From sequence record MT496971.1: DNA of 45,359 bases; one strand, given 5' to 3'. Under the pieces are notes generated by a model, which worked only from the letters and a program-made list of their open reading frames with translations, was not told the DNA's origin and ran no database searches. The DNA comes from Escherichia phage Mt1B1_P10. Positions 618 to 45,359 of this stretch are shown here, in pieces (the stretch's first letter is position 1; every line of letters starts with the position of its first letter). Both the position numbers and the translations under genes were made by a program.

Positions 618-3053
618 TTAACTGATTTTATTAGCGGCATACATCTCCTCTAATTTATCAAGACGATGGCGAGTGTAGGCAGCCTCTAGGATTAGAACTT
701 CACTATATCTCACACCGTACCTACCTTCTTCGAAGGACACAATTCCATACTTAATGGCATCCAATCCTTCAGCTTCAAAAGCAGCTACAATATCCTGAGC
801 CAAGACACCGAAGTGTATGCTATCAAGATTCCTCTCTGCTTCACTATTCAAACCATACTGTTTAAAACCAACTCTACTCCAAGCCTTTAACACCTTGGTA
901 TTAATACTAGAGATGCCGTACTTGTGGTCAGCATCTGAAGTGGTAACGGGGTCACTGCCTAGGTAGATGGTAGTGAATCGGTTACTAGGTCCACCAGCAG
1001 CAAACTGGTTATCTACAGCAGGCATGATTGGTGCACCTTGGAATAGGTGCTCATTTCCGTTATAAGTGATACGATTAGCATTACTTGAATTAGAGCCGTG
1101 CAAAGTTATCTGTGCACCTGAAGATGACGAAGTCTTTTCTCCACCACAAATAATCAAACGTTGACCAGTTGGGTTGTCCTTTGGAACAGACTTGCCAATA
1201 AAGCCGTACTCACCCTCCATCTGCACTTCAGACCGTATATTGGCACTTGTGCTTGCTTTAAGTGTTAAGTGTCCAACTTTAGCATCCTCTGTAGCAATGT
1301 CATCTGAGAAATACAAAGGTGCAGGGATATTTCGTACTCCATCAGTACCCATGAAAGTGGGTATAGCCTGACCAGGAGTTGCACCATATGTGAACTTACG
1401 AGATACACGATTGTCATTTGCAATCTGCATCTTATAGCAGTATATATCAGTAGGGTGTCCGTGCCCTTTAAATGGGTCTTTATCTTTGTTGTCACCATAA
1501 GTCATTGGGTTGAAATGGTTTTCACCACCAAAGATATAGTAAATGTAGCTATCTTTAACTACCACCGAACCTACGCCTACACTTGAGTTAACAATGTCAC
1601 CCTGATAGATTTGGTCTGTGATGTTAACCCATTCAATATCATCTGCATTCCACTTGTTTACATTCAATCGTGCATAGAAGGTACGAGGATAAGATGCCTT
1701 GTAACGATCATCTGGTGCACCTGCTTCCCATTCATTTTCTGCACGTTCTGAACCAAACATAATAAGGTCATCTCCTACTTTAGCAAAAGGTAAGGTAGTA
1801 TGATGAACATTATGTGGAAATCTTAGTGACTCCCAAGTCTGACCTATATCTCTACTACGATGCAAAGAGCTTCCAAGTCTGTCCCCACGAGTACCACGAG
1901 TGATAAGGTATAACACACCGTCATAGTACTTGATGCATGGCTCTGACGCATCCGGTTCATACTCAGATGGTATCTGACGACGAACATAATTAGATGGGCT
2001 ATTGAAAGCATCAGGGAAGTAGAAAAGCCCAACTTCTCGTGGAGCTACATCGCCTTGATGATAGCCCATAACAAAGCCATTGTTATCAATAGTAGCAAAG
2101 CTATGCACCTCTGTGACACGAGGGATTAGACCAAGATCTGTCTTACGCCATGGAGACTTATGGAAAGAAGTACCCATGTGCCAACTCTTTCCAGCGTTAT
2201 TCAAATCTGAAGTCTGCTGGTTAGGTGTAAGAACCGTGAAGTTGTCCTTATCTATTACTGCTGCTACAGTCATATCACCTGATACGCCTGTTACCGCAGA
2301 ATTAGAGAAGTTAACAAAATCACCCACGAATAGTCCGTGATCTGGTACATGTATTGTTGCATATCGCTGATTTGCAGCTTTAGTGATACCACCAGTAAGA
2401 TGCAGGCTACGAGACATAGGGCGGTCCCACAATGCACAATTGGTTAGTGCGTTCTTGGCTAAAGTACGTGTTTCAATCATGGCAAACAGACGGTTGCGAC
2501 ATACACCCATGCTCATACAATGATAGTTCACTGTAGGGTAATCTGGATGTAGATCAGTTAACCACTCTGGAGTAGACCATGTTTGACCATCGTCACCAGA
2601 TTTAACCCATGATACATGCAGACGACTAACACCATGACGGTCGCTACCCATGTAAGGTGCATATATCACATTCTCATATACAAACGCTTTGTCTTGAGGC
2701 CAAGCATTGTAATAAGGGTTGTCCGTGATTTTATAGAGTTCACCATTGATAAAACCTTTACTCACATAGTAAAGAGGTTGACCTGCTAAACGTTCCCATA
2801 CGAAGCGGGTGTTATAGAATCGCTCCATATCAGGTAAAGATGATACTTTGTAAGTAGCACCAGCACCGTCAATTCTCTTACCTGAAGCCATCGCTGCATT
2901 TACTGCATCTTGGTCGTTTGTCTTACCATCACCTTTGGCTCCAAAGTCTTTAAGCGATACAACCTCGGTGAGCTTGTCATCCAAGTTACGCCAGATTGCA
3001 CCTGCTATTTTACTCTTGAATTTAACTAATGAAGAACCTAGTCTTTGAATCAT
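618..3053 (-). CDS. Tailspike: endosialidase (endo-N-acetylneuraminidase), 811 aa
   Basis: Two sialidase Asp-boxes (SGDDGQTW, SRDIGQTW); C-terminal region resembling the auto-cleaving intramolecular chaperone domain of endosialidases; N-terminal KDFGAKGDG motif. Start moved to ATG at 3053 (SD AAGGAGG); the track start at 3197 is an upstream extension. Confidence 0.8.
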   Translation of the reverse strand: MIQRLGSSLVKFKSKIAGAIWRNLDDKLTEVVSLKDFGAKGDGKTNDQDAVNAAMASGKRIDGAGATYKVSSLPDMERFYNTRFVWERLAGQPLYYVSKGFINGELYKITDNPYYNAWPQDKAFVYENVIYAPYMGSDRHGVSRLHVSWVKSGDDGQTWSTPEWLTDLHPDYPTVNYHCMSMGVCRNRLFAMIETRTLAKNALTNCALWDRPMSRSLHLTGGITKAANQRYATIHVPDHGLFVGDFVNFSNSAVTGVSGDMTVAAVIDKDNFTVLTPNQQTSDLNNAGKSWHMGTSFHKSPWRKTDLGLIPRVTEVHSFATIDNNGFVMGYHQGDVAPREVGLFYFPDAFNSPSNYVRRQIPSEYEPDASEPCIKYYDGVLYLITRGTRGDRLGSSLHRSRDIGQTWESLRFPHNVHHTTLPFAKVGDDLIMFGSERAENEWEAGAPDDRYKASYPRTFYARLNVNKWNADDIEWVNITDQIYQGDIVNSSVGVGSVVVKDSYIYYIFGGENHFNPMTYGDNKDKDPFKGHGHPTDIYCYKMQIANDNRVSRKFTYGATPGQAIPTFMGTDGVRNIPAPLYFSDDIATEDAKVGHLTLKASTSANIRSEVQMEGEYGFIGKSVPKDNPTGQRLIICGGEKTSSSSGAQITLHGSNSSNANRITYNGNEHLFQGAPIMPAVDNQFAAGGPSNRFTTIYLGSDPVTTSDADHKYGISSINTKVLKAWSRVGFKQYGLNSEAERNLDSIHFGVLAQDIVAAFEAEGLDAIKYGIVSFEEGRYGVRYSEVLILEAAYTRHRLDKLEEMYAANKIS

Positions 3054-3104
3054 GTAACCTCCTTTTTCTGAAAGGCTACCATCATGATAACCTTTAAGAA
3101 AAGT

Positions 3105-3132
3105 TGCGCGAAAAGCAGTGCTTACGCACTGC
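3105..3132 (-). terminator. Terminator-like hairpin between the two tailspike genes
   Basis: Minus-strand RNA GCAGUGC-GUAA-GCACUGC (7-bp stem, 4-nt loop) followed by UUUUCGCGCAACUUUUCUU, immediately after the upstream tailspike stop and before the endosialidase SD. Confidence 0.45.
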
Positions 3133-3138
3133 CTGTGA

Positions 3139-4578
3139 TTACCTACGAATTGCCTGTACGTGCAATATTCCGTTAAGTGTAACACTACTACCTGCACTTA
3201 GGTTTTTAATGTAAACATTACAACTATTATCACCTTGTGGCTTCAGAATAATAGCACATGATTGAACATCGAAAGTAGAACCATATGTAAGAACATCACC
3301 TTTATTTGGTTTATAGTCACCAACTAATTGTATAGTTCCTGCATTTAAATCTGCATTAGGTTCTAATGTTGTGTTTACAACTAGTGTCCCTTTAGCTACA
3401 ACACCATTATTACTGCACCAACCTACAGTAAGTGATGGGTTAAATACGGTATTGTCATATTCAATGAGACTATCTCCAACAGCAGCCATAGATGCACCAC
3501 CCTTAGCACCGACCCATGCCTTAAGTGCTGTAGTTCCTAGCTTAATTCTAGACTCACCAGAGGCCATAATTGGGTAGGTGAAGATACTAGTAGATTTAAG
3601 GTTCTCACCGAAGAAGATTCCATCTACATTGACCCTAGAGCTGTCGTGCGCTCTAAGAAAGTATGCTTCTTCACTTCCAGATGCTGGATCAACAACGACA
3701 TTATGCGAGTGTAAGGCATAACCGTTGATTGTTACTGTAGAATCTCCATGAATAAATATAGAAGCATTACCGCTATGATGGATCTCACAATTCTCACTAT
3801 ACATGCCATTTATCACAAGACCTTTGCAGTTTGTAATATCAAATGCCTGTAAACCTTGGATATCATTACATCCATCCATGGCGCAGTTATTCATTGTCAT
3901 ATTATAAACATTAGCCAGTCTATATGCTTGATAGCAATTAAGCGCATAGCATGTATCCATAAGGACTGTAGTTCCAGTGAACTTACGGAACCCCTCCCAG
4001 CAATTGATAGCAACCACATTGCGCATTGAGTATTGGAATGCTCCTGTTTCATCATGCAAACCAAAGTATGCACCACGGACAATGATGTTCTCCATGATAA
4101 ATTGAGAAGGCCATGCTTGTTGGTCGGCATCACCTAGATCTATGCCTTTTCTGCCTGCATAGTTATCTGGTTTGTTCTCTCCATAATCTATGAAGAACCC
4201 ACCTAAATAACCACCCATAGAGTAACCTGCGCTTTCATCATATTTCCATGCAGGCTCATTGTGTGAAGTTGCAAGGATTGTACCAAGACTAGGGACAGGT
4301 GCTATGCCGCCACCTTTTATAACCTGATTCTTAAAATACAAAGTCTCACTAATTATATAAATACCTACAGGGATATACACGTTCTTACCAGAAGCAAGTG
4401 CAGCTTTGAATGCAGCAGTATCATCGGCAGAGCCATCACCCTTAGCACCAAAATCTTTAACACTAACAAAGTAGTTATCAGCGTGTAAGGTGTTATCCCA
4501 TGCTTGTTTTAGATAATCTGACAGCAATCCACCTTCATGTATAATACCAGTTGTGACAGGTTTGGTAATTTTAGCCAT
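3139..4578 (-). CDS. Second tailspike / putative capsule depolymerase (pectate-lyase-like beta-helix), 479 aa
   Basis: N-terminal VSVKDFGAKGDGSADDTAAFKAALASGKNVYIPVGIY typical of pectate-lyase-fold depolymerases; Gly/Asn/Ser-rich beta-helix-like repeats. Start moved to ATG at 4578 (SD AGGAGG). Confidence 0.75.
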   Translation of the reverse strand: MAKITKPVTTGIIHEGGLLSDYLKQAWDNTLHADNYFVSVKDFGAKGDGSADDTAAFKAALASGKNVYIPVGIYIISETLYFKNQVIKGGGIAPVPSLGTILATSHNEPAWKYDESAGYSMGGYLGGFFIDYGENKPDNYAGRKGIDLGDADQQAWPSQFIMENIIVRGAYFGLHDETGAFQYSMRNVVAINCWEGFRKFTGTTVLMDTCYALNCYQAYRLANVYNMTMNNCAMDGCNDIQGLQAFDITNCKGLVINGMYSENCEIHHSGNASIFIHGDSTVTINGYALHSHNVVVDPASGSEEAYFLRAHDSSRVNVDGIFFGENLKSTSIFTYPIMASGESRIKLGTTALKAWVGAKGGASMAAVGDSLIEYDNTVFNPSLTVGWCSNNGVVAKGTLVVNTTLEPNADLNAGTIQLVGDYKPNKGDVLTYGSTFDVQSCAIILKPQGDNSCNVYIKNLSAGSSVTLNGILHVQAIRR

Positions 4579-4662
4579 TAGACCTCCTATTACTTCCCAA
4601 CCCTCCCTATGAAGATTGGCTAGTAATAGGCCGCTCAAAAGAACGGCACTATCTTATCTCTT

Positions 4663-4709: not shown

Positions 4710-4907
4710 TTAATTATACCCGCGTTCTAGCGAAAGAATATACAAACCTAATTTTGTAGCGTCATGCTTACTAAAGCAGACCTTATCGTCCACCTCGTAA
4801 ACTGCCGTCAGCGTCGGCCCCAGAGGTTTCACCATTGCTTTCTCTGGTAACGCCTGCTGACACCCGGAAGTGGTCAGCGAACCAATCAGCAGGATTGTCG
4901 CTAGCAT
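4710..4907 (-). CDS. Candidate o-spanin (Rz1-like lipoprotein), 65 aa
   Basis: MLATILLIGSLTTSGCQQ... signal-like N-terminus with a Cys in lipobox-like context; starts inside the upstream overlapping ORF in another frame and extends beyond it (overlapped spanin architecture). Weak SD. Confidence 0.4.
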   Translation of the reverse strand: MLATILLIGSLTTSGCQQALPEKAMVKPLGPTLTAVYEVDDKVCFSKHDATKLGLYILSLERGYN

Positions 4908-5004
4908 GATTCGCTTCACTTTGTGCCTCCTTCTCTTCCTTCTTCTTCTTAGTGGCAAGCAGCAGGCCAATAAGACCTGCCACCACCTCAAGCACCTTAT
5001 TCAC
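4783..5004 (-). CDS. Candidate i-spanin (Rz-like), about 67-73 aa
   Basis: GTG start(s); N-terminal hydrophobic segment VLEVVAGLIGLLLA then a charged region; contains the embedded lipoprotein ORF. Shorter than typical i-spanins. Confidence 0.35.
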   Translation of the reverse strand: MNKVLEVVAGLIGLLLATKKKKEEKEAQSEANHASDNPADWFADHFRVSAGVTRESNGETSGADADGSLRGGR

Positions 5005-5254: not shown

Positions 5255-5599
5255 TTACCATCGTGCACATCCATCTCTTACATCAATGTGGGTGAAATTA
5301 GGATAAGACCCAATGCCATATTTATTGGGGTAGCGTGCTGTAAGATAAGACCATACACGGTAAGGTGTAATGCCTTGTACCTTAATGTCAGCAGCCTTAC
5401 CAGTAAGATGCATGGAGTTCTTAGCTCCACCTACGTTGGCATTGTGCTTAGCACAGCGATGACCAGAGGTAATAACCACAGGGGCACCGAAATACTCACG
5501 CACATCTGTGACCACCTGTAGTAGCTCAGCATCAACTGTGGATGTACCGCACCCACAACGGCAAGCAAACTCTTTACGCTTGAAGTGTCTATTAAGCAT
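5255..5599 (-). CDS. Endolysin, peptidase M15-like zinc peptidase, 114 aa
   Basis: Motifs KEFACRCGCG, ITSGHRC...HNANVGGAKNSMHLTGKAADI resemble the M15 (D-Ala-D-Ala carboxypeptidase-like) fold. Start taken at the ATG with a GAGG SD (5599); the first ATG at 5611 is also possible. Confidence 0.8.
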   Translation of the reverse strand: MLNRHFKRKEFACRCGCGTSTVDAELLQVVTDVREYFGAPVVITSGHRCAKHNANVGGAKNSMHLTGKAADIKVQGITPYRVWSYLTARYPNKYGIGSYPNFTHIDVRDGCARW

Positions 5600-5620
5600 C
5601 ACCGACCTCATCTGTTACAA

Positions 5621-5908
5621 TTAAGCTACAGGGGTTACAGGTGTCTCCTCCATAGTGGTTGCATCCCAAGGGTCAGTTGGTTCACTACCACGTGCAATAG
5701 CGATGTACAAGGAGTTGTCTGCTTTCTCTACAGCAACCATGGAGCCTTTCTGTTTGCCAGATAAGTGTTTAATGTTGATAGGGTGATCTTTCTTCTTAAG
5801 GTCTGCTTCAGCAACAATAGGCAAAGGGATTGCCGTTGCAGTGGTTTGTACAGTTTTTACTCGAAAAGCTTGACCAGTAACAGTACCTGCGTTTCCATAA
5901 TTAGACAT
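5621..5908 (-). CDS. Hypothetical late protein, 95 aa; paralog of the next gene
   Basis: ATG with SD GAGGAG; shares MSN... N-terminus and an SGKQKG(S/A)MV...IAIA core with the 5921-6199 product. Confidence 0.6.
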   Translation of the reverse strand: MSNYGNAGTVTGQAFRVKTVQTTATAIPLPIVAEADLKKKDHPINIKHLSGKQKGSMVAVEKADNSLYIAIARGSEPTDPWDATTMEETPVTPVA

Positions 5909-5920
5909 GTAATTCTCCTC

Positions 5921-6199
5921 TTAAGCTGGGGTAATAGTTGTGACCGCTAATAACGTGGTCAGCCAATTGGAATCTTCTTTGCCATCAACTGCGATAGCAA
6001 TAACCAGTGTATCATGTGTATCAAGACACACCATGGCTCCTTTCTGCTTACCTGATTTGGTGGCATCATTAATAACATCACCTTTCTTCTCAACAGTGTC
6101 CTCGTAAACTACAGGAAGCATCAGGGCTTCACTCACAGGTTGTATCTGCTTACGAGCAGACTTACCGGTAAGGGGTTGTGTACTATAACTATTAGACAT
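5921..6199 (-). CDS. Hypothetical late protein, 92 aa; paralog of 5621-5908
   Basis: Start moved to ATG at 6199 (SD AGGAGA); the track start at 6259 is an upstream extension. Confidence 0.6.
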   Translation of the reverse strand: MSNSYSTQPLTGKSARKQIQPVSEALMLPVVYEDTVEKKGDVINDATKSGKQKGAMVCLDTHDTLVIAIAVDGKEDSNWLTTLLAVTTITPA

Positions 6200-6337: not shown

Positions 6338-6355
6338 CTATAGTGTCCAGTAATT
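6338..6355 (-). promoter_or_regulatory. Phage RNAP promoter
   Basis: Minus-strand AATTACTGGACACTATAGAAGG overlapping the large terminase stop; upstream of the paralog pair and lysis genes. Confidence 0.7.
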
Positions 6356-8252
6356 AATAAGTCCTTGAAATCCTTGCAGAAAGTGTATTTCGATTTGCCG
6401 ATTTACTCCTGTAATTCTGACCGTACACTCTTTGCTGCATAGCCACGGAAGTGTTGGTTACTCTTCGCTCAGTGCCATAATCTCCATAGAGCATCGCCCT
6501 ACGGAGGTGAGGTGTGTTCATAGCATGGATGTAATCGCGCATCTCCTGCGCTCTGAGGCGATTAATCCGTGTAACCTCATCATAGTCTATCTGAGAAGTT
6601 AATTGCCGTATAGCGCCATACAGAGCGTCTAAGCGGTCATCGTGCCGGAGGCTGTTCTTCTCAATCGTGATGTTCGACATTTGATTGAAAAGGCTGTAGG
6701 ACATGCGTAGCTCAAGCGGATAGTTCTGTACCGAATCAAAGTCCGATTTCACCATCTCTGCGTTAAAGATGAGCCTGTGGGCCGCCATGAGTGGCTCTAG
6801 CGTCTCAATGATACGCAACTCTTTCTGTCCGGTGGCGTAATCCTCCTCCAGAGTCACAGGCCATTCTCGTTCAAAGTAAGGCTTAATTACCGCCTCAAAC
6901 GCGCCATGACCAAAGTTCTTTTCAATGAATACCTCTTTAACACCAGCCTGCTTTGCGGCCTGCACAATGCGATTCAGGGACGATTCGCGGTATCCGCCTG
7001 GCACGCCGAAGCACTGATACACGTAAATGAATGTGCCGTGCAGGAAGACAATCGCTACACCCGTTTCATCTCCATTCTTACCGCCGCCCGCTGGGTCGAT
7101 ATACATAATCTTGCGGGTAACAGCACCCCATTCATATGGGCGAGCCACAGGTCGATACATGAAGTCTGTAGGTTTATTGCCATACTTCGGTGCATCTCCA
7201 ATGATGTTGATGGAGTCGTTGCTCCACGTAGGCATCACAGGGACTTCCTCAGTACCGAATGAAGTGAAGATGAGATTGTTTAGACGAAGTGGGTATCTGT
7301 CAGCATCCATCATGCGAGTGTTAAGCATGAACTGAAGCTGGAACTTAGCCGCACCCTGAGAGATTTCCTTCTCAATCAGCACTTCATCGTCGTACATTTC
7401 AGGTGCGCAAGGTGCACCACTGTTACCGTCCAACCCATAACCAGAGCGAAGTGCGGGGTTGTCCTTCATATCCTGCACAATCATAGGTGCAAGGAAGTCA
7501 CCATAGCATTGCTCCTGCTCCACTGAAGGATAACGTGCAGTCCAGATACGAACAGAGTAACCACGAGCAGGTAAGTTATTGTAGATAGAGTTTACGTTCT
7601 GAGGTGTCCCAAGGTAGATGATGTCACCAAATTGGTTAATAGATTCAAATTCCTTGGTCAACTCCTCAAGCAATGCACGGCCTGCTGCTGTACGAGCATT
7701 CTGCATCGATTCAACGTCATCCGCTAGAATAATATCAGCACGAGCACCCTGCATACCTGCTTCGATTGAGTAACAGGATACAGAGGGGGACTTATCGCTA
7801 CCACGTAGGGTGTAATGAATCTCAAATGCTTTAACGGATGCACGGTCCCCTGCGTAGATATCCGGCAGCATAAACTCAAGGAAGTCTAGGCCACGGAAGA
7901 TTTTCACCACCCAACCAGCGATTTCCTCTGCTCGCTTAGCGTTTTGGGATACAACCATGATACGCTTATGCGGTTCGTGGATAATACGAAATACCGTATA
8001 GATTGCTGATAGTGTTGTCTTAGCGATACCACGAGGCGCTTCGATGAGGCGATACTTATGCCCGTAGAATAGGAACTTCAAGATATCAGCCTGCATACGA
8101 ATCAGATGAGGGTTGCCTGCAATCAAGTTATGGATAACTGTATCTGCAAAGAGAAGCAAACCTTCCGCTGTATATTTAAAAGTGTCTTGTAGTTCTTTAA
8201 GGTTTTCCCACCGCTTTAATGCCTCTGCCTGTGATTCTCTAGCCTTTGCCAT
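6354..8252 (-). CDS. Terminase large subunit (T7 gp19-like), 632 aa
   Basis: Walker-A-like RGIAKTT, LQFMLN motif and overall similarity to T7 gp19 as recalled. Start moved to ATG at 8252 (SD AAGGAG), which overlaps the HNH stop. Confidence 0.9.
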   Translation of the reverse strand: MAKARESQAEALKRWENLKELQDTFKYTAEGLLLFADTVIHNLIAGNPHLIRMQADILKFLFYGHKYRLIEAPRGIAKTTLSAIYTVFRIIHEPHKRIMVVSQNAKRAEEIAGWVVKIFRGLDFLEFMLPDIYAGDRASVKAFEIHYTLRGSDKSPSVSCYSIEAGMQGARADIILADDVESMQNARTAAGRALLEELTKEFESINQFGDIIYLGTPQNVNSIYNNLPARGYSVRIWTARYPSVEQEQCYGDFLAPMIVQDMKDNPALRSGYGLDGNSGAPCAPEMYDDEVLIEKEISQGAAKFQLQFMLNTRMMDADRYPLRLNNLIFTSFGTEEVPVMPTWSNDSINIIGDAPKYGNKPTDFMYRPVARPYEWGAVTRKIMYIDPAGGGKNGDETGVAIVFLHGTFIYVYQCFGVPGGYRESSLNRIVQAAKQAGVKEVFIEKNFGHGAFEAVIKPYFEREWPVTLEEDYATGQKELRIIETLEPLMAAHRLIFNAEMVKSDFDSVQNYPLELRMSYSLFNQMSNITIEKNSLRHDDRLDALYGAIRQLTSQIDYDEVTRINRLRAQEMRDYIHAMNTPHLRRAMLYGDYGTERRVTNTSVAMQQRVYGQNYRSKSANRNTLSARISRTY

Positions 8253-8682
8253 TTCGCCACTCCTTAAAGAGAGAAGAAACTCTTGGTTCACTTTTACCAG
8301 TAAGTCTAGCGGTTTCTGCTACACCCTTACCTTGCAAGAAGCAATCTTTTAATCTTGCTAAATAGCTATTTAAGGCACTCCTATCATTTCCATTGCATTT
8401 TAAATAGTTATTCTCGCTTCTTGTTACCCACTCCAAGTTGCTAACATCATTGTTGTGCTTATCGCCGTCTTTGTGGTTTACTTCATTATTAGTTTTAGGT
8501 AAATACTTATAAGCCACTAATTGATGAACATAGACATTACGCCATTTACCTTCTTTATTTTTAATTTTAACTGCTAAATAACCCCTACCCGCCTTGAATG
8601 GTTTGAGAGGGGTGCCACCCTTTGAAAGGATGACACCAGAAGGTAAGATGGTATAACCTTGAGATTCACACCATCTATGCAT
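8239..8682 (-). CDS. HNH homing endonuclease (NUMOD4-like N-terminus, HNH core, C-terminal HTH-like), 147 aa
   Basis: VNHKDGDKHNNDVSNLEW and HQLVAY motifs; paralog of the HNH at 38540-38896. ATG at 8682 uses the last two codons (GAGGAG) of the upstream gene as its SD; its 3' end overlaps the terminase start. Confidence 0.8.
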   Translation of the reverse strand: MHRWCESQGYTILPSGVILSKGGTPLKPFKAGRGYLAVKIKNKEGKWRNVYVHQLVAYKYLPKTNNEVNHKDGDKHNNDVSNLEWVTRSENNYLKCNGNDRSALNSYLARLKDCFLQGKGVAETARLTGKSEPRVSSLFKEWRNGKG

Positions 8683-8683
8683 A

Positions 8684-8983
8684 TCACTCCTCTTTTGTAA
8701 ACTGAATTATCTTACCACTGGATGCCTCTCGGATAGCCTTGAGGCGCTTAGATAACTTGGACTCTTCCTGCTGTGCAGCAGGTGTAGCGGTAATACCATT
8801 ATCAAGAACCCACTTACACATAGCTCCAATGTCTTTACCAGACACTAAATGCAATGCTGCATCAGGATCCCCTTCTATAGTGTCCAGTATTGCCTGTGCT
8901 TTCTTATTAAAGATTCTGGTAATAGCACCATGCAGAATGCCAACCTCATCCTCTGTAGCTGCATGTTTATTGTGTACGCTCAC
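8684..8983 (-). CDS. Putative terminase small subunit (gp18 position), about 99 aa
   Basis: Assigned by synteny (holin, this gene, large terminase). Only plausible in-frame start is GTG at 8983 with SD GGAGGG; the track's TTG start at 9028 is unlikely. No motif-level confirmation. Confidence 0.45.
   Translation of the reverse strand: MSVHNKHAATEDEVGILHGAITRIFNKKAQAILDTIEGDPDAALHLVSGKDIGAMCKWVLDNGITATPAAQQEESKLSKRLKAIREASSGKIIQFTKEE
8875..8892 (-). promoter_or_regulatory. Promoter-like sequence inside the small-terminase ORF
   Basis: Minus-strand CAATACTGGACACTATAGAAGGGG: core from -12 to +4 matches the consensus, upstream AT-rich part differs. About 190 nt upstream of the HNH start. Confidence 0.45.
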
Positions 8984-9161
8984 GCTTCTCCCTCCAAATC
9001 TTGAACTTATTATAAAACCAGTCCCCAATTTGCAACACGGTATAAATGAATGTTGCTATTAACACCCAATTATCCCAACTGATACCGAGGAAGTACCCAC
9101 CTGATACGAGTGCAGGTGGCGCAAGCTTCACACCACTATCTACCAGTTCGGAGTTAATCAT
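8967..9161 (-). CDS. Holin, class II (T7 gp17.5-like), 64 aa
   Basis: ATG with SD AAGGAGG; ...WVLIATFIYTVLQIGDWFYNKFKIWREKRE parallels T7 gp17.5 as recalled. Confidence 0.75.
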   Translation of the reverse strand: MINSELVDSGVKLAPPALVSGGYFLGISWDNWVLIATFIYTVLQIGDWFYNKFKIWREKRERTQ

Positions 9162-38539: not shown

Positions 38540-38896
38540 TTATTTCCTTAGTAAACAGCCGTGATAAGTATTGTATGCAACTGACACCCACTCTAGGTTA
38601 TCCGCATTGTTGTTCAACTTGTTACCATCTTTATGATTTACAATATCAAAACTGGTAAGATTAGGGACGAAAGCAAGTGCAACCAATCGGTGTACTTTCT
38701 CAGTTCTAGGCGGGAAGTAGCTAAAGTCACCATGCTTTCTCATAGACAGACGAAGATAGCCATCTTTATCTGGGCTTCCCTTCATAATTTTAGGTGTCTT
38801 ACGCTTATGCTTGCCCCAATAGGCATTTGCCACTCTGCCCTTGTTAGATACTAGATATTTACCATCATAGCCTTTTACTGGTTTCCATATTTCCAT
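38540..38896 (-). CDS. HNH homing endonuclease (NUMOD4-like plus HNH), 118 aa
   Basis: WKPVKGYDGKYLVSNKGRV, HRLVALAF and VNHKDGNKLNNNADNLEW motifs; paralog of the HNH at 8239-8682. Confidence 0.8.
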   Translation of the reverse strand: MEIWKPVKGYDGKYLVSNKGRVANAYWGKHKRKTPKIMKGSPDKDGYLRLSMRKHGDFSYFPPRTEKVHRLVALAFVPNLTSFDIVNHKDGNKLNNNADNLEWVSVAYNTYHGCLLRK

Positions 38897-45092: not shown

Positions 45093-45359
45093 TAGCCCAC
45101 CCACGCCCACCCTGTCAAACGCTCAGGAATGGCCCTAAAACGGCCTGTGTAAGCCCTAAGCGGTTGCACTAAGGCAATCACCTTGTCCAATACTAAGGCG
45201 TGCCCTAGCGCTTCCTAGGCGTTCTCCTTGTGCAGCCACTAAGAGCAGACCTCGGCAAACCCTAGGCCACCCGTCGAAGACGTACCAGCCCAGCCCAATT
45301 CCCAAGCCAACCGCAGCGCGGCCCCCATATGGGGAAAATCCGGCGAGGGCGAGGGCGAG
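45093..45359. repeat. Direct terminal repeat, copy at window end (genome left end)
   Basis: Identical to bases 1-267. Confidence 0.9.

Follow-up and report, generated by a model that had tools for sequence, protein, structure and literature searches.

Free-standing endonuclease genes of phages are known to spread with co-conversion of flanking DNA and with marker exclusion (PMC2988022), and homing genes cluster beside essential genes, those of terminase included (PMC10448857). Three described systems come closest to the locus that we analyze here: I-HmuI, an HNH enzyme of Bacillus phage SPO1; the free-standing HNH and GIY-YIG homing endonucleases of T-even phages; and the packaging HNH proteins of cos phages, whose partnerships with terminase have been documented (PMC12967558; discussion in PMC10448857). 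We studied the genome of Escherichia phage Mt1B1_P10 (MT496971.1; the window is the whole stretch of 45,359 nucleotides), in which an HNH gene separates the genes for the small and large terminase subunits (terS and terL). It is highly probable that this is a free-standing, I-HmuI-like HNH_3 homing endonuclease gene, i.e., a mobile element of the selfish kind that takes no part in packaging; our verdict is that gene conversion is its means of spread and that packaging can proceed without it.

The gene at the terS/terL junction

The window is a complete Vectrevirus (K1-5-like) coliphage genome, read in reverse; terS, the HNH gene and terL are all on the minus strand. Direct terminal repeats, claimed in an earlier, sequence-only reading of this DNA, are indeed present: positions 1-267 equal positions 45093-45359 (267 nt, 100% identity). 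The relevant genes and signals are the following:

8967..9161, minus strand: class II holin gene, upstream of terS (PF10746, 1.5e-27)
8983..8684, minus strand: terS, small terminase subunit, 99 aa, GTG start behind GGAGGGAG (PF11123 DNA_Packaging_2, 1.5e-15)
8871..8892, minus strand: copy of the phage-RNA-polymerase promoter inside terS (-17..+1 span 8892..8875; core GGACACTATAGAAGG at 8885..8871)
8682..8239, minus strand: putative HNH homing endonuclease (free-standing gene, 147 aa), flanked by the terS stop codon and the terL start codon
8252..6354, minus strand: terL, large terminase subunit, 632 aa, ATG at 8252-8250 (NF033889 termin_lrg_T7, 8e-168; PF22530, 1.5e-35)
5611..5255, minus strand: endolysin (Peptidase_M15_3, 1.3e-32)
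4916..4710, minus strand: Rz-like o-spanin with a lipobox (phrog_8971, 1e-37)

The terS label is found at the matching gene in the annotated genomes of VEc3, K1-5 and others; NCBIfam had no model for either the HNH protein or terS. The junction reads GAGGAG (8692-8687), TGA (8686-8684), a single T (8683) and ATG (8682-8680), which bears out two details of the sequence-only reading, namely, that the HNH gene starts 1 nt past the terS stop and that the final two terS codons, GAGGAG, serve as its Shine-Dalgarno sequence, 4 nt upstream of the ATG. The same reading had the HNH stop codon overlapping the terL ATG. The two open reading frames do overlap, by 14 nt (ATGGCAAAGGCTAG; the overlap in the VEc3 annotation is equal), but the stop codon, TAG (8241-8239), is not on the ATG and lies 9 nt downstream of it. 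The 3' end of the HNH gene, therefore, sits 14 nt inside terL in a different reading frame, and the ribosome-binding site of terL, AAGGAG (8265-8260), is provided by the 3' end of the HNH frame. The insert is harmless by build: terS is intact, terL has a new ribosome-binding site, and the out-of-frame end is only 14 nt long. The GC content of the HNH gene (38%) is lower than that of the surroundings and of the genome (45%).

A search for an insertion scar revealed no target-site duplication; the sole boundary repeat, AGGAGTG (8691-8685 and 8264-8258), coincides with the ribosome-binding site of each downstream gene and is read as functional, not as a scar. The HNH frame is not embedded in an intron or intein: its position is between the two terminase genes, and no Rfam family, that of the group I intron included, reached threshold across the whole genome stretch. 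Introns in terL were seen in two relatives only, and none in Mt1B1_P10.

The promoter-like copy that had been placed at 8875-8892, about 190 nt upstream, proved to be real as a motif and lies 193 nt before the HNH ATG. Its core is a perfect match to a motif with 13 copies versus 1.16 expected, 12 of the 13 being on the minus strand. Because this copy is conserved in every HNH-less relative examined (K1-5, EEc4, LL11, ULINTec7 and P433.1), it is not specific to the HNH gene, and the idea of an HNH-specific promoter was rejected. The suggestion that Rz/Rz1 had moved next to the endolysin agrees with the position of the Rz-like o-spanin gene, nested within a 73-aa open reading frame (5004..4783) with a hydrophobic N-terminal stretch, which may encode the i-spanin. 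In T7, genes 18.5/18.7 lie between genes 18 and 19. The HNH gene, however, did not fill a gap left by Rz/Rz1, as phages of this group have nothing between terS and terL in the native state (TGATG overlap).

Protein family, predicted fold and selection

The sole Pfam match of the HNH protein is to the profile PF13392 HNH_3 (residues 50-92, E=2.6e-11), with a score of 43.4 bits at a curated cut-off of 24.8 bits. The protein also matches phrog_59 'HNH endonuclease' (1.3e-29) and the PADLOC model HEase ('homing endonuclease', 1.5e-14); a role in defence or anti-defence was rejected, as PADLOC gave 'homing endonuclease' models only. In a PDB sequence search, I-HmuI (1U3E) was the sole significant solved relative (E=5.4e-6, residues 11-92), and it was again the sole PDB match at E<=0.001 when the AlphaFold model (pLDDT 93, pTM 0.78) was submitted to Foldseek (E=1.9e-6, probability 1.00, 115 columns, 30% identity). 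The predicted layout consists of an N-terminal beta-sheet, a beta-beta-alpha-metal HNH core (H70, N82, N91) and a C-terminal helix-turn-helix; the C-terminal helices (residues 101-143) are helix-turn-helix-like, and residues 115-138 weakly match sigma-factor region 4. Across 33 homologues, four residues (H70, D72, N77, N82) show no variation, and N91 shows almost none; H70, N82 and N91 align with H75, N87 and N96 of I-HmuI, i.e., with the general-base histidine, the structural asparagine and the metal-binding asparagine. Domains of the NUMOD4, NUMOD1 and I-HmuI_NUMOD-like types, which are characteristic of homing endonucleases, are present in homologues. Cysteines occur at positions 5, 96 and 113 only, with no CxxC pair. 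Two substitutions count against a homing function: position 94, three residues past the metal-binding asparagine, is leucine, while at least 90% of close family members have histidine there (I-HmuI also lacks this histidine), and D74 of I-HmuI corresponds to N69. By sequence, predicted fold and family scans, the protein is an I-HmuI-like HNH_3 homing endonuclease, with presumed nuclease activity.

The dN/dS ratio of the gene is 0.12 in the comparison with AAPEc6 and 0.16 in the comparison with PhiNW-E1. The reading frame is intact in four translated alleles (Mt1B1_P10, VEc3, AAPEc6 and PhiNW-E1), and the matches in other carriers are full-length and gap-free. Judged from these substitution patterns, the HNH protein is under purifying selection. 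An allele of 59% identity at the same slot, together with a dS of 0.30 between alleles, points to a long association of the gene with this site; it should be noted that such an association would also be seen with a mildly beneficial gene, which counts against the homing reading.

Presence, absence and the 534-bp cassette

The comparison of this junction among relatives, proposed beforehand, was carried out on 77 related phage records and revealed a presence/absence polymorphism. The HNH gene is found in 17 of these records, at no less than 91% amino-acid identity and in the same slot each time, and is absent from the other 60, which have an empty site instead and include the well-studied phages K1-5 and K1E; an identical protein is held by 12 records. 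The empty site (...GGAGGATTGATGGCT...) differs from the filled one by 432 nt and is precise in K1-5, EEc4, LL11, ULINTec7 and P433.1, where the terS stop either overlaps the terL ATG (TGATG) or directly abuts it. The sequence-only reading had held that presence of the gene at this locus in all close relatives would speak against recent mobility; most relatives lack it. The orthologues in VEc3 (AUE22272.1), EC120 (URC25449.1), KMB47 and AAPEc6 (ANT40828.1) are 96.6-100% identical and occupy the same slot. In public records, the orthologues in sister genomes are labelled 'HNH endonuclease' or 'HNH homing endonuclease', and the product in the Mt1B1_P10 record is a 'hypothetical protein'; our literature search (Vectrevirus, VEc3, AAPEc6, Mt1B1_P10) found no published analysis of the mobility of the gene.

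Other homing genes are found in the same or neighboring slots, namely, a gene of 45% identity in mutPK1A2, the 59% allele (from a phage less closely related) and an additional HNH gene in EC120. The mutPK1A2 occupant of the same slot looks decayed: its frame is broken into two pieces (110 + 37 aa), and SET stands in place of the expected SEN. In one Logan contig (L011), terS and the HNH gene are joined into one frame by two deletions of 1 nt in A-runs; decay and assembly error are indistinguishable in this case, and the contig was set aside.

The extent of the mobile unit is delimited by the near-isogenic pair VEc3/K1-5, and the following features were defined:

8169..8702, minus strand: mobile cassette, 534 bp (last 16 nt of terS, 432-nt insert, terL nt +6..+84)
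8169..8247, minus strand: 5'-terminal diverged patch of terL, strictly HNH-linked (29 substitutions in 79 nt, VEc3 versus K1-5)
8687..8702, minus strand: 3'-terminal diverged stretch of terS (4 wobble changes and D->E in the last codon), including GAGGAG (8692-8687), the HNH ribosome-binding site

Between 9106 and 7663 (~1.4 kb), the differences between VEc3 and K1-5 are limited to 5 substitutions in 8702-8687, the insertion of 432 nt and a further 29 substitutions in 8247-8169; outside the cassette, the two phages are identical over 404 nt on the upstream side and 506 nt on the downstream side. The cassette of Mt1B1_P10 is 100% identical to that of VEc3, the flanks of this pair are 90-97% identical, and the Mt1B1_P10 flanks are 98-99% identical to those of ULINTec7, which has no HNH gene, versus 95-97% to those of VEc3 in the same comparison. 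The same cassette is found on different genomic backgrounds (K1-5-like and ULINTec7-like), and these comparisons show, at the level of sequence, its transfer between backgrounds. A selfish, tightly integrated insertion, one of the two options raised before this study, is strongly supported by the HNH family, the empty sites and the identical cassette in different backgrounds. Co-conversion beyond the cassette was also considered: Mt1B1_P10 equals VEc3 over 8785-8134, but all relatives share these additional flanking bases, which makes them uninformative.

When the patch at the start of terL was used as a 113-nt query, 17 records matched with identity of at least 95.6%, and these are exactly the HNH carriers; 60 records matched at 74-77%, with none between. 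The linkage of the patch to the HNH gene is perfect (17/17 carriers versus 0/60 non-carriers). Compared to ULINTec7, terL has 27 differences in its first 90 nt (30%) versus 5% in the remainder, with 5 amino-acid changes; the re-coded TerL N-terminus (A13K, M17N, Q19K, Q23D, P26K) always accompanies the cassette. The GC content of the patch is 42%, compared to 53% in K1-5-type sequence. The patch may be either an immune version of the target site or co-converted donor DNA. The stretch at the 3' end of terS is not strictly HNH-linked, as PhiNW-E1 has the HNH gene with a K1-5-like terS 3' end. No phage record carries the patch without the HNH gene, and a scan of IMG/VR returned only one contig with the patch, and 7 with the empty site. 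The lineage of the 59% allele was rejected as a donor of the patch, its TerL N-terminus being K1-5-like.

Homing, its alternatives and known systems

Under the homing explanation, the HNH gene would belong to the late terS-terL transcription unit, with GAGGAG in the final codons of terS as its translation signal. During co-infection with an HNH-less relative, the enzyme would nick or cut the DNA of that relative at or near the terS/terL junction; the proposed target lies within approximately -16..+84 of the terL ATG in K1-5-type sequence. The break would be repaired by recombination, with the HNH-carrying genome as the template, and the repair would bring in the 432-nt gene and the flanking diverged bases, i.e., the 534-bp cassette. 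The carrier genome would be protected by the insert that splits the site, by the 27-29 base changes in the first part of terL, or by both. A literature search found no cleavage or homing experiment on this protein or a close relative. Two considerations count against this explanation: the diverged patch could be hitchhiking donor DNA, rather than the target site, and co-infecting phages could exchange the cassette by ordinary homologous recombination, with no part played by a nuclease.

The latter consideration leads to a reading in which the frame is a relic, without activity or relevance, and homologous recombination among co-infecting Vectreviruses is all that moves the cassette. The genomes of these phages are highly mosaic, the family-typical histidine at position 94 is missing from a protein whose activity is predicted, and the related occupant of the same slot in mutPK1A2 appears to be degenerate. 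Nevertheless, we consider this reading very unlikely, because the gene has a dN/dS of 0.12-0.16, a frame intact in all four translated alleles with full-length, gap-free matches elsewhere, and the core catalytic residues; moreover, an identical protein in 12 records, including two backgrounds studied in detail that have differing flanks, suggests rapid recent spread, and the cassette ends, which are sharp and always the same, agree with repeated conversion events that start from one fixed region of breakage. The least probable reading, to which we give hardly any credence, is that the HNH protein and terminase together cut concatemers, as for HK97 gp74, GVE2 HNHE and the Skunavirus HNH protein of cos phages; this was the other option of the sequence-only reading, an endonuclease co-opted for packaging. 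It would agree with the documented partnerships, with the position of the gene directly between terS and terL, co-transcribed and translationally linked to them, and with purifying selection. The option is unsupported by the data: 60 of the 77 records, those of K1-5 and K1E among them, are without the gene, and VEc3 and K1-5 are otherwise identical across the region. The protein itself belongs to the HNH_3, I-HmuI-like family, with an N-terminal DNA-binding sheet and a C-terminal helix-turn-helix, and is not a small zinc-finger HNH protein (PF01844-type), having no CxxC and only the three scattered cysteines. I-HmuI is its only significant structure match, packaging-HNH structures being absent both from the PDB hits by sequence (E<=1) and from the 50 fold matches listed, and the 267-nt direct terminal repeats are T7-type ends, not cos.

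Purifying selection and long persistence at the slot would also fit a domesticated competition factor, kept mainly for cutting the essential terL region of rivals, with marker exclusion as a weapon. This reading overlaps with the homing explanation; the gene presumably targeted is one that close competitors cannot do without, and phage homing endonucleases are known to cause marker exclusion (PMC2988022). However, the gene is present in only about one fifth of the records, such that any advantage has not brought it to fixation, and sequence data cannot separate this reading from plain selfish homing; we regard it as very unlikely. In a related and very improbable scenario, the nuclease may destroy the terminase operon of rivals, while installing a matched TerS/TerL variant (the re-coded TerL N-terminus and, usually, the TerS D->E change). 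If true, the result would be a linked 'weapon plus resistant essential-gene allele', by which lineages could become incompatible in packaging.

With selfish homing as the preferred explanation, the locus is a clean but ordinary case: free-standing HNH homing endonucleases beside terminase genes are common in phages, and, with the gene already labelled as an HNH (homing) endonuclease in sister genomes, the finding has little weight for general biology. Its value is in the near-isogenic pairs VEc3/K1-5 and Mt1B1_P10/ULINTec7, a natural experiment that delimits the 534-bp conversion cassette and predicts a target of ~100 bp at the terS/terL junction. Homing is easily testable in these T7-supergroup (SP6/K1-5-like) phages, which serve in therapy, and there is a warning here that co-infection of therapeutic Vectreviruses will transfer the 534-bp block.

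Compared to known systems, the locus shares the HNH motif and the terminase neighbors with packaging proteins of the HK97 gp74 type; those, however, belong to another Pfam family, whereas this protein has no zinc-binding cysteine pairs, its gene is not conserved among relatives, and the phage has terminal repeats instead of cos ends. With I-HmuI (PDB 1U3E), it shares the order of parts (N-terminal beta-sheet, HNH core, C-terminal helical DNA-binding part) and the His/Asn/Asn active site (H70, N82, N91 versus H75, N87, N96). I-HmuI differs in being a group I intron-encoded nicking enzyme of 174 aa, with D74 in place of N69, whereas the Mt1B1_P10 gene is free-standing and encodes 147 aa, and its product may either nick DNA or cut both strands. 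The T-even free-standing HNH and GIY-YIG homing endonucleases (mobE, SegF, SegG; 'intronless homing') resemble it in being intergenic, beside essential genes, variably present and associated with co-conversion (PMC2988022, PMC2790892), although Mt1B1_P10 is a member of Autographiviridae, Vectrevirus, and the T4 Mob proteins have other C-terminal domains. Finally, cut sites in T4 may be hundreds of bp from the gene, whereas the converted tract here spans -16..+84 around the insertion point, and a tract this short suggests, short of proof, a target at the junction itself.

The HNH cassette among relatives

By DNA search, the window falls in Vectrevirus, the K1-5-like genus of the Autographiviridae (subfamily Molineuxvirinae); over 20 kb, it is ~95% identical to ULINTec6 and K1E. 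At the level of sequence, the decisive evidence comes from these relatives, whose comparison at this junction the sequence-only reading had proposed. The 147-aa HNH protein is found at 91-100% identity in 17 phage records, in every one between the small and large terminase genes (terS and terL); the slot is empty in K1-5, EEc4, LL11, ULINTec7 and P433.1. In the first four, the stop codon of terS overlaps the start codon of terL (TGATG), and in P433.1 the two genes share one base (TAATG). The insert measures exactly 432 nt and separates the stop codon of terS from the ATG of terL. The carriers' terL is also heavily diverged at nt +6..+84 (27-29 substitutions, 5 amino-acid changes), with a GC content in this patch of 42% in carriers versus 53%. 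A 113-nt query for the patch region returned 77 records, of which 17, exactly the HNH carriers, matched at at least 95.6%, and 60, without the gene, at 74-77%, with none between. The last 16 nt of terS form a shorter diverged stretch whose linkage to the HNH is not strict: PhiNW-E1 combines the gene with a K1-5-like terS end.

Between window positions 9106 and 7663, VEc3 departs from K1-5 in three respects only: 5 substitutions at 8702-8687, the insert itself, and 29 substitutions at 8247-8169; read from this alignment, VEc3 amounts to K1-5 with a 534-bp cassette added. This block is 100% identical in the window and VEc3, and the window's flanks are 98-99% identical to those of the HNH-less ULINTec7, compared to 95-97% (near) and 90% (far) for VEc3. 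Identical cassettes with unlike flanks mean that, by sequence, one block is present in at least two backgrounds, each with an HNH-less sibling, and this transfer strongly supports the selfish insertion suggested previously. Horizontal gain by gene conversion directly explains the distribution of the cassette. Loss could account for it only if about 29 substitutions had been reverted as well.

Gene order and expression signals

The first 267 nt of the 45,359-bp window are repeated as its last 267 nt, and the late genes are on the minus strand, in the order internal virion protein, tail-fibre adaptor, holin, terS, HNH, terL. Features discussed here are:

9161..8967, minus strand, holin
8983..8684, minus strand, terS
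8682..8239, minus strand, HNH
8252..6354, minus strand, terL
5611..5255, minus strand, endolysin (Peptidase_M15_3)
4916..4710, minus strand, Rz-like lipoprotein spanin, embedded in a 73-aa ORF (5004..4783)

The terS/HNH junction reads GAGGAG-TGA-T-ATG, as originally described. At the other end, the HNH gene does overlap terL, by 14 nt (annotated likewise in sister genomes), but its stop codon (8241-8239) is 9 nt into terL and not on the ATG, as had been thought. The terL ribosome-binding site AAGGAG (8265-8260), 7 nt 5' of the ATG, is inside the HNH ORF. The promoter-like copy noticed within terS is real and a perfect instance of the motif (core 8885..8871), which has 13 copies in the window versus about 1 expected. 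Every HNH-less relative examined has this copy at the corresponding position, which makes it a regular late promoter of the family and separate from the insertion.

The Rz-like spanin comes after the endolysin, and the remark that the lysis genes lie together there is therefore correct; the 73-aa ORF, with its hydrophobic N-terminus, is a candidate i-spanin. Downstream of terL are adjacent paralogous ORFs of 95 and 92 aa (5621-5908 and 5921-6199, minus strand), both matching phrog_2725 (2e-46, 3e-40); the name of that family, "acetyl-CoA acetyltransferase", appears doubtful given such a small size. Two large ORFs at the genome end (618-4638, minus strand), one of 499 aa (3139-4638) and one of about 859 aa (618-3197), may, from their position and size, be the pair of tailspikes of a K1-5-like phage with dual specificity.

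Allele states and other homing elements

Homing genes usually invade, are maintained for as long as empty sites are left, and then decay, and the spread of allele states fits this cycle. The AAPEc6 and PhiNW-E1 alleles have intact ORFs with H70, N82 and N91 retained; the remaining carriers have gap-free full-length matches. In a less closely related SP6-like phage (Logan contigs L009, 3001-3435, and L010, 1104-1538), the terS/terL slot is filled by a 144-aa allele with 59% identity, and the TerL N-terminus is K1-5-like, unlike the window's patch type. In mutPK1A2 (NC_047889.1, 1994-2424), the slot holds another HNH (45% identity) next to a K1-5-type terL start; this gene is split into 110 + 37 aa, with SET for SEN (Thr replacing the metal-binding Asn), and is probably decaying. 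Logan contig L011 (ERR4564195, 3001-3743) has the same cassette with two single-base deletions in A-runs, through which terS and the HNH N-terminus become fused and an HNH ORF of 92 aa is left; these may equally be real decay or assembly error.

A second free-standing homing endonuclease gene of the window (38540-38896, minus strand, 118 aa; NUMOD4 6e-12, HNH_3 2e-10) has its stop 1 nt upstream of the start codon of primase/helicase (38538). It was found at the DNA level in 0 of 82 related phage records; its site is empty in relatives (about 745 nt versus 1101) or has other occupants, such as gp8.5 in K1E or, in LL11, another gene annotated as "putative HNH endonuclease". EC120 (ON185580.1, 1828-2259) has, in addition to its terS/terL HNH, an unannotated 143-aa HNH_3 + HTH ORF between holin and terS (41% identity to the window's HNH); its start falls within the altered 3' end of the holin gene, and its stop overlaps the terS TTG start. 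In P433.1 (3253-3460) and L010 (2664-2873), a group I intron (RF00028, 63.6 and 65.4 bits) splits terL, with a homing endonuclease ORF after it; in the window, terL is continuous.

Proposed homing, its rivals and the HNH protein

Free-standing phage homing endonucleases are known for co-conversion and marker exclusion (PMC2988022), and homing genes cluster beside terminase and other essential genes (PMC10448857). Because of this established behavior, we propose that in mixed infection the HNH would cut or nick genomes that lack it close to the terS/terL junction, and that repair templated by the carrier genome would copy the cassette in. The carrier would be immune via the split site or via the terL substitutions; the patch may be the target itself, or just donor DNA whose divergence prevents recombination inside it.

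Compared to the window, the HNH alleles of AAPEc6 (dS 0.12, dN 0.014) and PhiNW-E1 (dS 0.30, dN 0.047) have dN/dS of 0.12-0.16; this purifying selection makes a passive relic unlikely. Co-option for packaging, raised earlier and modeled on HK97 gp74, is very unlikely: most relatives lack the gene, the genome has terminal repeats and no cos ends, and the HNH is of another type, with no packaging-type HNH among its matches. A competitive weapon is possible and, by sequence data alone, indistinguishable from homing. All that is added here is a natural conversion tract with unusually sharp limits, along with a prediction of the target site that can be tested.

The gene was already labeled "HNH (homing) endonuclease" in VEc3, EC120, KMB47 and AAPEc6, and the identical protein of Escherichia phage Mt1B1_P10 is a "hypothetical protein" in NCBI; we found no published analysis of it in the literature on Vectrevirus, VEc3, AAPEc6 and Mt1B1_P10. 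It is an uncharacterized protein of a well-known kind, matching Pfam HNH_3 (2.6e-11), PHROG "HNH endonuclease" families (1.3e-29) and PADLOC "homing endonuclease". NUMOD4, NUMOD1 or I-HmuI_NUMOD-like modules are frequent in its homologues, its C-terminal 45 residues fold into a helix-turn-helix-like unit, and a search for paired cysteines in it found none.

I-HmuI is an intron-encoded homing endonuclease. It is the sole solved relative, by sequence (5.4e-6) and by fold (Foldseek E=1.9e-6, using a confident predicted model, pLDDT 93). H70, N82 and N91, (nearly) invariant among 33 homologues, align with I-HmuI H75, N87 and N96. Position 94, typically His in the family, is Leu both here and in the allele with 59% identity, and I-HmuI has no His at the matching spot either; the HNH and I-HmuI differ at I-HmuI D74, which is Asn69 in the HNH.
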